Positions 11,493 to 34,450 of a stretch of DNA of 64,000 bases are shown one piece after another. The translations under genes were made by a program, and so were the position numbers. Below the pieces are notes generated by a model. It did not search any database, was not told where the DNA came from, and worked only from the letters and a program-made list of their open reading frames with translations. The stretch's first letter is position 1, and every line of letters begins with the position of its first letter. Source of the DNA: Saccostrea echinata (Eukaryota); contig NW_026889752.1 of assembly GCF_033153115.1 (NCBI RefSeq), forward strand, positions 12,276,001-12,340,000. The letters are read 5' to 3'.

Positions 11493-11922
11493 TTAAAATC
11501 CAGTAAAAACTGGTTTCTTAGCACCAAGTGTTCCTGGTTGATATAATGTAAAACATAAGTCTACAGCAGGGCTTTCTTCTTTACATGGTGAGACCCTGAA
11601 AGAGATACAATAGCTATGTAAAAGTATTAATCACATATTTTCTACAAAGTATTCGAATTTATATTTATTACTTGGAAAAATAAATGAATACAAGAATGTA
11701 TACAGACAGATGATCTTAAAAATGCCTACCTTTTATACTTGCGGATGAAACGACGTATGAGAGATAAAGTAAAAAAACAACCGGCTAGTATGCCAAGGCT
11801 TATCACAAGCAATTTCCATGTACTCAGTTCACAAGGATCATCCAAAGAAGAGGAAGAACAATCATAAAGTGATCCACAAGCATCGCAAGACTTACTTGCA
11901 GAAGCTCTCCCTTTAGAAGTTT
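11493..11922 (-). CDS. TM exon (11922-11730) and terminal exon (11595-11493) of the EGF-array gene
   Basis: Cys-rich linker, hydrophobic [21 protein letters not shown], then basic RRFIRKYKR. Phase-2 junction AG|gtaggc..ttcag|G gives [34 protein letters not shown]. Confidence 0.75.
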
Positions 11923-14900
11923 CTTGGAATTCAAAATAAAAACAAATAATTAAACTTTGAGGTAATTGGCTACAGTAAATTATCATGTATGTGCTTAGTA
12001 CAATCGGCAATATATTCGGACAAGAGCTTCTTTAAGAGAAATTTCCAGTAGATATATATCTTCATATTTATAATGTATGCTTCAAAATTTTTCTTCACAA
12101 ATCGATACACAAATAAATAAAAAAAATCTGTTTACTTTTAATACATGTGGTATATATATTAGTGCGTACCATTAGCACATACACTTCCAAAAAATCCAGC
12201 TGGACATTCACACCGGAAACCATTCACTAGATCATGACAGGTCGCCTGCAAGTTACATGGGGAACTTGAGCATTCGTCAACATCTGCGAAAAAAACAACT
12301 CTTAAATCTTTTAGAAAACTAACTAATTTTAAATGAAAACTCACTCTTTGTCAAAATTAACACCATTTTTGGTGATGTTTTATTGATACGCTGGTCTAAT
12401 AAGGCAGGAATAATAATAAGATATTGAAATGTGGTGTTGTTTTGTCATTGATAATTATAGCAATTTATATCTAAAAAAACTAACGCTTCAGATTTATTTA
12501 TCATAAATTATTTTTTATTTCCTCAGACCGGTCACCGTAGCCTAGTGGTAGAGAGCGTACTACGTGCTCGGGAGGTCCGGGTTCGATTCACGTTCGCCGC
12601 ATCGCGTCAAACCGACGTAAACATAAATAGTGACTGTTCCAACGCCAAGCACCCGGTACTATAGAAGTGAAAGTCACGGGTCTTTCGAATAAGACCTTAA
12701 GAAGGTCTTTCGAAAGGTCCCATGTCAGGGTAGGCGTTTGCACGATAAAGAACCCTCACTGCTTAATGGCCCTGAGTGCCGAGTATAGGTCTAAATTTGA
12801 AGCTCTTCATCGGCATACGGTGAAGTCTCTATAAATGAGTGAAAAAACTTTAATTAATCATGGTGAAAAAGAACCTCCATGTGATTTAGGTACAAACTTG
12901 TTAAATTCATTGCCATGGAAATATTGTATGGCTACATTAGAGGATCCACATTTCACAGAAGTATATTAAAAACATATGCCAGAAACATTCCTTTCTTCAA
13001 AAATAATGAATGAAAATCATGAATAATGAAATCTGACATAACTTTCAAAAAAAAAAAAAAAAAAAAAAAAAAAAAAATTCTTTTAAAAGTTTCAGTATTA
13101 AAAGAAAACTTAAAGTTACCTGTATAGCATATAAATTATTCATCAAATATTGTGAGTGCGATACTTATTATTAACTGGATGCAACTGTGAAAGACCACAC
13201 CCGATCCTAACGACTCACCAAGTTGGCAGAAATTTCCACTGAACCCTGCAGCACAGACACAGGTGAAACCATTCACAATATCCAGACATGTGGCATTATT
13301 TTGACATGGGAAACTGATACATTCGTCTATGTCTGTAAAAATTAAAGATGAACATTTTTCTAAATGTGGATGTAACATGCTCTCGGGGGAAGTACACTCA
13401 TGAACCGCATCTTTGTTTTCACACCGGTTTCACAGAGTGTGTTCCTAAATCTTTTGACTTCATCTTGATAATTGATTGCCTTGCAAACGTTTCTTTGAAC
13501 ACTTATTTAGAAACATATACCAGCTTATGTGAGAAATCTTCCATAAAATTCCTGTAGGTTTCGACATGATGTTCATGCTTTGAATATAACAAAGATATGT
13601 ATACCATTGGAACAAAGACTGCCATCATATCCAGGGGCACATTCACAGCTATATCCATTAACTAAGTCATGACAAGTCGCTTGATTTTGACAGGGTGAGC
13701 TGGAACACTCGTCGATATCTGAAAGCATGTGTTATTATAAAGATTGATTTCAACACTGGAAATTATAATTGAATTCAAATTAAACAAAAAGAAGAAAGAA
13801 GTTAAGCAAATTCAGAAGATTTTTCTTTACAAGTATTCCATATTTTTCACTAGCTTTCAAGTTAACTCACCAATTTGACAGAACACTCCGCTGAATCCTG
13901 CAGGACAACTACATGTAAAACCATTGACTTGGTCCTGACAAGTAGCGTTATTCTGGCAGGGGGCGCTCCTGCATTCATTAATATCTGTAAAATATAAAAG
14001 GTGATTTTTAAGTTGGATATCAAATGTTAGTTTGTGATACAGGAATTACTTACTGAGTAGTCGATAGAAAATTACATACGAAATACAAAGCTTGTTTTTT
14101 AAAAAGATCAGAAGAAAAATATCTCGTATTGAATGTTAAAAGTCCGTATTCTAACAATTTTAAATGAAAAAATCATAGTGACACAAATAGCCAAAAAAAT
14201 GTAAGTCACGTATTGTAGGCGCGGTGACATTTGCCGGATGTATCGGATGACATTTTTTCAAGTGTGAAAGGTTGCATTCGATCTTAATTGCCAAGTACTC
14301 ACCAAGTTGACAGAAATTTCCACTGAACCCTGCAGCACAGACACATGTGAAACCATTCACAGTATCCAAACATGTGGCATTATTTTGACATGGGGAGCTG
14401 ATACATTCGTCTATATGTGTTAAAATGAAAGAAATGGCGTTTTCTCAATATTGATGTAACATACTGTCTGGGCACACTTTTGAACCTGATGTTTGTTTTC
14501 ATACCGGTTTCACGGAGTGTTTGTTCCTAAATCTTTTTTTTTTCACTTTATCTTAATAACTGATTGCCCAGCATATGTTTGTTTGTTTGTTTGTTTGTTT
14601 GTTTGTTTTTTTTTTTTTTTACACTTTTATTAATAATATATACCAGCAGATACGGTTGTATATTTGTGAGAAACCTTCCATAGCATTCCCCTATGTTTAG
14701 TTATCATATTCATGCTTTGAATATAACAAAGATATATATACCATTGGAACAAAGTCTACCATCAAATCCAGGGGCACATTCACAGCTATATCCATTAACT
14801 AAGTTATGACAAGTCGCTTGATTTTGACAGGGTGAGATGGAACACTCGTCGATATCTGAAAGCAAGTGTTATTACAAAGATTGATTTCGACGTTACAAAT

Positions 14901-32900: not shown

Positions 32901-34450
32901 GAGAGAGAGAGAGAGAGAGAGAGAGAAAGAAAGTATTGTCCTATTGTCTTTTTAACAGCCATTTGATATTATTCAGCCTTTCTTTGTTTAGTTTAAATAC
33001 AAACACATGAAACAAAAGCCAATTGTTCTGACCCCTTTATTAAATATCATTGTACTCCAATTACCTAACCACACCGAACCAAGTTACGCAATGCTTGATA
33101 CTAATACGATGACGTTCAGTAAGAACGTTTTAACGAGACCATGTTTCGACCAAAGTATGGAGATAAACTGAAATTAAAAACTCCATTCAGAAGTCTTGTT
33201 GTGGCGTTTTATTCTTTTTATCACTTTTTCGACTTGCAAAAGCAAATAATTTCAAAACTATTCCAAATCATATGACGTTTTTAAATGCAACGTTCAGCAT
33301 ATTAAGTTTTGTTTGATGTCACTTAATTGTAAAGTTTATCAATGATGCAAATGACATAAAAATAGCAAACAAAGAAAAGCTAGGGAATAATAAAGGAATG
33401 AGCATTTCCAAATTTCTAGTAATTATATATTTTGTAACATGTTCATATATGTCCATCGCATTATGCTTTAAAATCTAAAGTTAAATATGCTCAAGAGAGA
33501 AGGAAAAATGTCCAGTTTGGTATCCCTGGTAGCTGCCCTATAAATCATCTTTGATGTTATAGATCTGGGAAATAAATGTGAGAAAAAAAGATAAAAATGT
33601 GTTATAATATATCTGTTGAATTTATACCTTTTTTCATACCTTTTTTACTAGTAGTAGTCGTAATATATTAAAGTGTGTCTAAATATCATTTTCATAATTT
33701 ATTGATCACAACTTAGTATTATCATTATTATCAAAATGTAAATATATACGTACATTCAGCACAGGATTTTTCTCCAAGAATCGTCTGTATACCTGATAGC
33801 GTGATGAAGTTATCAGTGATGTACGTATAATCATTATGTGATGACACACTCCTCAATACCTGCTCATCGATTCCACTGGTTACACCAACACAAAAAATAG
33901 TGACAAATTGGTCCTTTAACAATTGGGCCTCATTGGATATTGTGCTCTGTCCATCTGTTATCAAGATGACAATTTTTGCTGCATCAGCCCTTGCGCCTTT
34001 GCTTGTTAAAAACGAATACTGACGAACGAAGTTAAGCGCAGTTCCTATTTGTGTTCCACCAGAAGAATAAGTTAGAGACAGAACAGCAGATTGCAGACTG
34101 CTGAGGCTTGTGAATCTGTTCAGACTAAATGCTTCTGTTGCTGAAGAATGGAATTTCACAATGCTGAACTGATTTGCACTGGGACCTATGGAAAATTCTG
34201 ACAGGAGATCTCGTACAAAATATTTCATTGTCACGAAATTTTGAGAACCAATAGATCCTGATTCATCTAGAAGAAAGATGATGTCTCCCTTCGATGTACA
34301 GTATCCTATAAGAAGAACAAACATTTTTATCCCTAAAATTTTTTGAAGTTTCAGTAGGCACAACATTTTACCAATTATTCGAATTAAGACATGCTTACCC
34401 CTAGCCTTTGTAAAAATACTTAAGAAGATGAAACAAAATTTGAACTGCAT
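11493..34450 (-). CDS. Type-I membrane protein: SP-vWA-EGF-Ig-Ig-(cbEGF)x28-TM-cytoplasmic tail (fibropellin/Notch-like EGF array), ~1597 aa
   Basis: Exons 5'->3': 34450-34399 (SP), 34305-33754 (vWA), 32804-32688 (EGF), 31524-31228 and 30990-30703 (Ig). Then 114-nt EGF exons starting at 30209, 29352, 29078, 28664, 27754, 27479, 25935, 25666, 25275, 24380, 24106, 22576, 21844, 21577, 21205, 18777, 18510, 18120, 16380, 16087, 15698, 15120, 14855, 14416, 13984, 13718, 13332, 12283. Then 11922-11730 (TM) and 11595-11493 (tail, TAA). Junctions are phase-compatible and sum to 4794 nt. The gap at 30290-30455 could hide an exon. Confidence 0.85.
12527..12846 (+). mobile_element. tRNA-derived SINE (Meta + Deu/Nin-type central domains; BivaMD-like)
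   Basis: A box TAGCCTAGTGG, B box GGTTCGATTC, body GGTCCCATGTCA..GCACGATAAAGAACCCTCACTGCT, 3' ATGAGTGAAAAA. Collinear with 54771-55135. Family name from recall. Confidence 0.85.
16978..17835 (+). mobile_element. Non-autonomous Helitron/Helentron-like element in an EGF-array intron
   Basis: Absent from most paralogous introns. 5' AACTAGA..AAGAAGGTCTTCC, degenerate 3' hairpin ending AAGAC before an A-rich end. 3' part repeated at 22088-22290. Confidence 0.6.
19000..20452 (-). mobile_element. 5'-truncated Penelope-like (Naiad-like) element in an EGF-array intron
   Basis: [36 protein letters not shown], full 3' UTR at 19000-19175. Interrupts sequence that is contiguous in the paralogous intron (AAAGAATGGTATGTACAAACA at ~24620). 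Confidence 0.9.
22088..22290 (+). mobile_element. 3' remnant of the element at 16978-17835
   Basis: GAGACCGGATGTGACCTCATCAAAA...CGTTTCCGAGAA.TTGCGTGCACAAAATCG shared with 17640-17770, with the same downstream flank. Confidence 0.75.
22710..23838 (-). mobile_element. Solo LTR (Ty3/Gypsy-type), 1129 bp, 4-bp TSD CTTG
   Basis: cttg|TGTAAC...TTTACA|cttg. Paralogous introns show the empty site (ttttcttgataattgattgcc). Minus-strand TATATAA at ~23170-23164 and downstream AATAAA set the inferred orientation. Confidence 0.85.
30290..30455. other. Assembly gap (N run) inside the EGF-array gene
   Basis: Run of N. Confidence 1.
30703..31524 (-). CDS. Two immunoglobulin-domain exons (31524-31228, 30990-30703)
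   Basis: [32 protein letters not shown] and [34 protein letters not shown]. Both are phase 1-1. Confidence 0.9.
32891..32925. repeat. (GA)n microsatellite
   Basis: Direct reading. Confidence 0.95.
33754..34305 (-). CDS. von Willebrand factor A domain exon with intact MIDAS
   Basis: [13 protein letters not shown] (DxSxS), [18 protein letters not shown]. Acceptor ttatag|GA, donor T|gtacgt. Confidence 0.92.

Follow-up and report, generated by a model that had tools for sequence, protein, structure and literature searches.

The window analyzed here, a 64,000-nucleotide (nt) stretch of the Saccostrea echinata genome (NW_026889752.1:12,276,001-12,340,000; positions are counted within the window), contains on its minus strand what is likely a single gene of an oyster vWA-EGF-Ig-transmembrane (TM) family, in which a block of 28 EGF domains is placed between the second Ig domain and the membrane exon. 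The predicted product is a long-stalk adhesion receptor whose head carries a metal ion-dependent adhesion site (MIDAS). We hold this reading as a whole with moderate confidence, and its parts differ in strength. From sequence comparison, it is very probable that the head and the TM exon belong to one gene, and it is reasonably probable that the full-length product is made. Given such a product, a role in adhesion or tethering is distinctly probable.

At the level of the DNA, the exon order, the open frame, the homology of both ends to the family, the nine three-exon units of the stalk and the purifying selection on it are established. Most simply, this would be a single member of the family whose Ig2 and TM exons have been separated by an inserted block of EGF exons.

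One open frame from the vWA head to the cytoplasmic tail

The window is AT-rich animal DNA (GC content 0.32). Thirty-five minus-strand exons, running from an ATG at 34450 to a stop codon that ends at 11493, join into 4794 nt with one open frame, which encodes 1597 amino acids (aa) plus the stop; splicing here is an in silico model rather than observed in RNA. Every one of the 34 donors is GT, AG is present at 33 of the 34 acceptors, and the internal introns are in phase 1 with the exception of the last, which is in phase 2. The domains follow one another as signal peptide, vWA, EGF, two Ig, 28 EGF of the calcium-binding type, a four-Cys module, a TM helix and a 42-aa tail, so that the architecture and coordinates drawn from the sequence in an earlier note, which put the tail at ~40 aa, hold up. 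A Pfam scan covering five exons of the head and first stalk position returned vWA (E 7e-42), EGF, two Ig and EGF_CA, and for the other 27 stalk exons the type was assigned from pattern and identity. The six-cysteine EGF pattern matches the minus strand 29 times, once in the head and 28 times in the stalk.

Exon 1 (34399-34450) likely encodes the signal peptide, judging by eye and from its likeness to the N-termini of two relatives (P0005 and P0007); a further upstream exon is possible. Intron 1 (34306-34398) is 93 nt long, in frame and free of stops. The vWA exon (33754-34305; PF00092) has a Cys pair flanking the domain, and alignment finds all of the MIDAS residues (D-x-S-x-S, T and D) present, in agreement with the earlier claim that the site is intact. 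Most of the AlphaFold-modeled vWA domain has a predicted local distance difference test (pLDDT) score of 75-91, and the modeled fold is nearest to mussel byssus PTMP1 (33%, root-mean-square deviation 1.8) and collagen VI N5, followed by integrin I domains. The head EGF exon (32688-32804) is conserved in the family, at 67-87% identity to the seven relatives listed, and is recognized by Pfam, as are the Ig1 (31228-31524) and Ig2 (30703-30990) exons. Because the EGF domains are poorly resolved in the predicted structure, with pLDDT ~63 for the head EGF and below 50 for the last EGF, we leave the packing of the domains uninterpreted.

At the other end of the gene, the exon at 11730-11922 encodes 63 aa that comprise a four-Cys juxtamembrane module specific to the family, an STWK motif and the TM helix. 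It has no Pfam match and contains the most hydrophobic 19-mer of the model (Kyte-Doolittle 2.49). When a family hidden Markov model (HMM) was built without the window, this exon was its sole match among 2149 window open reading frames (E 2e-14); its best protein match is P0004. The last coding exon (11493-11595) supplies the cytoplasmic tail and the stop. The 42-aa tail has no recognizable or catalytic domain and aligns weakly with the tails of relatives. Its C-terminal T-x-F fits a class I PDZ-binding motif, to which we give no weight because the relatives end differently.

Both ends belong to an oyster vWA-EGF-Ig-TM family

Protein searches covered cluster representatives of at most 2000 aa. 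The vWA exon is 100% identical to an S. echinata RefSeq protein, XP_061169151 (P0003), named ‘notch homolog protein 2-like’. Of the other 24 vWA matches, 21 are vWA-Ig proteins with 53-71% vWA identity, and those that are named come from four oyster genera, Saccostrea, Crassostrea, Magallana and Ostrea. Family members share the order signal peptide, vWA, EGF, a variable number of Ig, four-Cys module, STWK, TM and tail. They include XP_078329872, XP_022291732, XP_011436312 and XP_034337929, which are annotated as hemicentin-like, titin-like or uncharacterized; the earlier expectation of misleading automatic names was thus borne out for the head and for its relatives. An oyster family has been hidden under wrong automatic names, and this gene is split in RefSeq.

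The junction between vWA and EGF is present in 48 of 294 stored proteins, 47 besides the window's own, and in 38 of those 47 the TM module follows in the same frame, with 1-13 Ig domains between (both counts of relatives include isoforms and alleles). The number of Ig domains rises to 15 in one family model that lacks the TM. For some short-stalk relatives, a single Logan contig of 1.8-2.7 kb encodes the protein from head to tail. Homology supports the earlier assignment of the vWA/Ig and EGF/TM parts to one gene, since in relatives this head and this TM module are encoded together in a single frame. Stalk EGFs occur in none of the 38 relatives with both head and TM module, and since both ends of the window gene are family sequence, it is very likely that a single gene encodes head and TM, with the stalk as a lineage-specific insertion.

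The two ends also point to the same place within the family. The TM exon ranks its relatives as P0004, P0006, P0005, P0007, P0011 and P0008, the same subfamily as is found by vWA. In a tree of heads, the window gene falls in a nine-row short-stalk subfamily (support 100/100), nearest to two C. virginica three-Ig proteins (81/89). A tblastn search of the window finds one head and one TM exon, on the same strand and in the right order. Against 1.84 billion representatives, the TM-module profile gave 20 matches, three of which (P0091, P0094 and P0097) were dropped as short multi-stretch matches, by match pattern alone. Among the 17 full single-stretch matches, eight lie directly after an Ig domain, the rest are fragments and none follows a stalk EGF; the named ones are oyster proteins.

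The window gene therefore resembles this family in its vWA domain (up to 71% identical), its four-Cys/STWK/TM module and its similar tail, but has two Ig and 28 EGF domains, against 1-15 Ig and no stalk of EGFs in the relatives. The architecture had been called unusual, which stands for the EGF stalk, unseen in the 38 relatives, whereas the head, TM exon and tail are common to an oyster family of several genes, in which Ig domains normally make up the stalk. We found no description of the family in the literature, by architecture or identifiers, although subscription journals and unseen supplements may bear on this. The accessible text of PMC5379566, on oyster shell proteins, and of PMC13428168, on immune diversification, does not describe it. 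None of the identifiers tried appears in the supplements of PMC12064177 (nine files) or PMC12564202 (one file), where other gene identifiers are possible. The ESM Atlas gave no usable match for P0004 or P0080.

Several individual relatives deserve comment. In one family branch (P0011, P0068 and P0014) the MIDAS is altered, DKSDS keeping the motif and P0014 having DKPGS and TDE; because of this branch, metal binding may vary between paralogues, as far as motifs can tell. P0009 is probably a fused gene model, with EGF-Ig-Ig-TM repeated twice; the head EGF recurs as its second EGF. A C. gigas model of earlier date, P0010/P0067 (vWA-EGF-Ig4-EGF3), would, if real, be a second case of an EGF stalk. 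We set it aside as a probable, though unproven, chimera because P0013 is 95% identical to it over 627 aa and then continues with Ig only. Two Mytilus proteins, P0175 and P0177, were the top matches to the stalk EGFs but were rejected as relatives: their vWA domains are 28-31% identical and internal, and they have no Ig and no TM-module match. They combine long runs of calcium-binding EGFs with the internal vWA, an independent vWA and EGF combination in bivalves.

The stalk is a repeat of three-exon units

The stalk runs B', then nine (C,B,A) units with the A exon of unit 2 absent, then B'', and all 28 of its EGF exons are 114-nt phase-1 cassettes. Stalk EGF 1 (30096-30209) and stalk EGF 28 (12170-12283; typed by pattern and identity) are the divergent B-type exons at its two ends. 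The 26 exons of the nine units lie between 13219 and 29352 on the minus strand and were likewise assigned by pattern and identity. Their high ends are at 29352, 29078, 28664, 27754, 27479, 25935, 25666, 25275, 24380, 24106, 22576, 21844 and 21577 (repeat exons 1-13) and at 21205, 18777, 18510, 18120, 16380, 16087, 15698, 15120, 14855, 14416, 13984, 13718 and 13332 (repeat exons 14-26). No remnant of the missing A exon was found by blastn in the intron at its place (25936-27365). The repeat period is 1.1-3.1 kb, introns having been duplicated along with exons. The C-intron-B cores are 71-93% identical, and close pairs are not always adjacent. Neighboring stalk EGFs are 64% identical, compared to a mean of 90% for those three positions apart (i+3).

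The three exon classes have dN/dS values of 0.16 (A), 0.39 (B) and 0.30 (C). None of the 26 repeat exons has a stop or a lost Cys, where a neutral simulation that ignores the shared history of the units expects 19.7, and none of 20,000 simulated runs was undamaged. Judged from these substitution patterns, the stalk is under purifying selection. Because the dN/dS values are purifying and no stop or Cys loss is seen in the 26 exons, the stalk would thus have been translated through most of its history.

The B exons (high ends 29078, 27479, 25666, 24106, 21577, 18510, 16087, 14855 and 13718) are unusually uniform. They diverge by 3.2%, and by 5.6% at third positions, ~3x less than the A and C exons do there (15-19%), while their flanking introns diverge by 16-34%. 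This uniformity could stem from gene conversion confined to the exons or from selection acting on splicing signals.

All 28 stalk EGFs match the consensus patterns for beta-hydroxylation and O-fucose, 26 of the 28 match that for O-glucose, and the stalk holds 18 N-glycan sequons. A search with the stalk EGFs gave general EGF-rich proteins, and among the matches listed none is a donor for the stalk. We infer that the phase-1 intron following Ig2 received a phase-1 EGF exon, either in place of a third Ig or before one was gained, and that this exon was triplicated and the triplet then amplified by unequal crossing-over. The gene would then be a clear and recent example of exon shuffling, in which the spacer of a receptor was replaced while the head and the anchor were kept. 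Since paralogues bear the same head on stalks that differ widely in length and in the type of domain, the effect of reach can be put to a direct test.

A predicted long-reach adhesion tether

In integrin I domains, the Mg2+ shell of the MIDAS is completed by an acidic residue of the ligand. The vWA head is predicted to bind a matrix or cell-surface ligand in this way, through its MIDAS metal ion at the end of the stalk. Runs of calcium-binding EGF domains form semi-rigid rods, and two to three Ig domains span ~10-15 nm. Calcium and O-glycans would stiffen the 28 modules of the stalk into a rod of up to ~80 nm, at the ~3 nm per EGF module given in the accessible text of PMC2150771. Compared with the short Ig stalk of close relatives, this arrangement would likely raise the distance between head and cell surface several-fold. 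Since the 42-aa tail has no catalytic domain, the protein would tether and not signal like Notch. The matrix-like vWA fold, the MIDAS, the EGF rod and the short domain-free tail together suggest, through predicted structure and analogy, a long-reach adhesion tether.

A more speculative extension, which we regard as possible but rather unlikely, is an oyster ‘periscope’ family in which the length of the stalk (1-15 Ig among paralogues) sets the reach of a conserved vWA-EGF head, the stalk can be exchanged for another kind of domain, as in this gene, and one gene gives a range of reaches. Because the 28 phase-1 114-nt cassettes form triplets that recombine, skipped exons or changes in copy number could produce such a range between cells or individuals.

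The main rival to an adhesion tether is that the same protein acts in immunity or in telling self from non-self, for example as a haemocyte receptor that might bind opsonins as the alpha-I domains of complement receptors do. The multi-copy family, in which the count of Ig domains varies (1-15) and the MIDAS motif is altered in some members, would fit such a role, as would the presence of alpha-X and alpha-M I domains among the sequence and fold matches and, weakly, the adjoining C1q-domain gene. However, the head is conserved across the four oyster genera rather than hypervariable, and the nearest solved vWA domains are those of matrix proteins, so we consider recognition an unlikely primary role.

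Observations against a single full-length product

Several observations count against one long-stalk gene with a full-length product. XP_061169151, at 492 aa, makes the same joins as our model from vWA to stalk EGF 1, including the join from Ig2 to EGF across an assembly gap, but it starts inside intron 1, which holds its start codon, and after stalk EGF 1, its last exon, it reads into the intron and stops. None of 22 candidate proteins of 112-2000 aa contains the TM exon. Among 120 listed of 346 stalk-EGF matches, the best core identity is 23 of 32 residues and no protein of 71-2000 aa carries the stalk; a second species with a 28-EGF stalk was not found in the database protein searches. No transcript is seen across any junction: over 30460-34500, one sequencing run of guessed type (share 0.08) gives one 341-nt exact contig, which lies inside the vWA exon and crosses no joints, and it says nothing about expression or splicing. 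The Ig2 domain, still predicted to form a beta sandwich, lacks the second, F-strand Cys and has Ser instead. Stalk EGF 24 (14303-14416) has the single AC acceptor of the model, with an in-frame AG 6 nt downstream; skipping of the exon or use of this AG would be expected. The neutral simulation overstates the expected damage because it treats the units as independent. Finally, a gap of 166 N (30290-30455), which begins at a T run, sits in the key intron between Ig2 and the stalk.

Some of these points would fit a stalk that is decaying or mostly bypassed, the main product being short: either a secreted vWA-EGF-Ig-Ig-EGF protein, as RefSeq models it, or a receptor in which most of the stalk exons are skipped. 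We judge this to be less probable again than an immune role. The AC acceptor and the Ig2 Cys loss could be signs of early decay, to which the lost A exon may be added, and no protein with the stalk or TM exon was found among the searched matches. The intron between Ig2 and the stalk also contains AATAAA/ATTAAA hexamers, which are common in AT-rich DNA. Against decay, all three exon classes are under strong purifying selection, and with one AC acceptor the other 27 stalk exons are therefore canonical; the TM and tail exons are also intact. The Cys lost from Ig2 is also missing in other Ig domains of the family (26 of 177 motif matches). The ends of the RefSeq model look poorly supported because it also misses the likely signal-peptide exon.

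The position of the assembly gap, in exactly the intron between Ig2 and the stalk, raises the alternative of two genes, or of a misjoin that brought a head gene next to an EGF-TM gene. That EGF fusions do occur in annotation is indicated by P0010/P0067, since this older model conflicts with what current models show at the same locus or one nearly identical to it. However, the TM exon is of the same subfamily as the head, the window has just one head and one TM exon, and no signal-peptide exon is evident by eye in those parts of the 493-nt intron that are sequenced. For a misjoin to be the cause, an EGF array would need to have landed by chance between the halves of one family gene, and we regard this alternative as very unlikely.

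Least probable of all is a Notch-pathway decoy or ligand that acts through its run of glycosylation-consensus EGFs and not through its head: the EGFs are of the Notch/fibropellin type with O-fucose and O-glucose consensus, but the model has no DSL, LNR or ankyrin, and three repeated EGF types, alike at i+3, form a spacer pattern rather than distinct binding sites.

Other features of the window

Upstream in window coordinates, a C1q-domain gene lies on the plus strand at 3668-7866. One long exon encodes three C1q domains (Pfam E 1e-26, three stretches), and three tandem domains within a single exon are less usual; another exon (3668-3973) encodes a likely signal peptide and a coiled-coil-like stretch with no Pfam match. 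A second assembly gap, of 153 N (9775-9927), is located downstream of the receptor gene. Broken copies of one repeat element, 68-80% alike, occur at 1216-2624, 10213-10882, 18990-20460 and 35105-36256; their translations resemble a non-LTR retroelement, and the fragment at 18990-20460, which is inserted in a stalk intron, looks LINE-like. Two tandem cytochrome P450 genes are on the plus strand at ~40000-43900 and 50000-56450, with a Pfam p450 match at 43249-43578, a second copy of it at 55781-56077 and paired exons that are 73-80% identical. A tandem repeat with a ~135-nt period (57100-58270; ~72-77% alike) has related pieces near 48000-48350.

Comparison with known systems

Hemicentin, Notch, Crumbs, fibropellin and matrilin each share single modules with the window gene (vWA, Ig or calcium-binding EGF), and this is the source of the automatic names. 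The earlier exclusion of the first four is upheld by defining modules or topology. The LNR and ankyrin intracellular domain of Notch are absent, with a 63-aa linker/TM exon and a 42-aa tail in their place. Crumbs has laminin G domains among its EGFs, as seen in the Crumbs matches, whereas the stalk here consists only of 114-nt EGF exons. Fibropellin is secreted and has CUB and avidin domains, both missing from a model that has a TM helix. Hemicentin, also secreted, has a vWA domain, tens of Ig, few EGF and a fibulin C-terminus, compared to two Ig, 29 EGF and a TM helix here.

Integrin alpha-I, ANTXR1/2 and apicomplexan TRAP/MIC2, which are among the sequence or fold matches, are likewise type I membrane proteins with an N-terminal MIDAS vWA. 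Their identity is 31-33%, or lower, where shown, and they have other stalks and no EGF array: a beta-propeller and legs in integrins, one Ig in ANTXR and TSR domains in TRAP/MIC2.

In the accessible text on bacterial Periscope Proteins (PMC8201768), an N-terminal binding head is projected by a tandem array of similar domains, and the window model also has a head on tandem similar domains. Here, however, the repeating element is a three-exon unit with introns, identity is 90% at i+3 and 64% between neighbors, and the gene is known from one assembly.

The best functional analogues are MUP-4 and MUA-3 of C. elegans, as described in the accessible text of PMC2150763 and PMC2150771. These single-pass proteins, with one vWA domain and 28 or 52 EGF domains, link epithelium to matrix, and they have in common with the window gene the vWA, the many EGFs and the single TM. 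The claim of an unusual architecture is qualified on this side as well, since vWA, 28 EGF and a TM are already combined in MUP-4, in another arrangement (PMC2150763). In MUP-4/MUA-3 the vWA is internal (after EGF 8 in MUP-4), there are two SEA domains and unusual EGF variants, Ig domains are absent and the tails exceed 200 aa; the window gene has a terminal vWA, Ig domains, a 42-aa tail and no SEA (PMC2150763, PMC2150771). A molecule made of a vWA, a long EGF rod and a TM is therefore a known kind, while the oyster family is apparently undescribed. By inference from this analogy, the window protein would work like MUP-4 and MUA-3 though it is not a member of their family.

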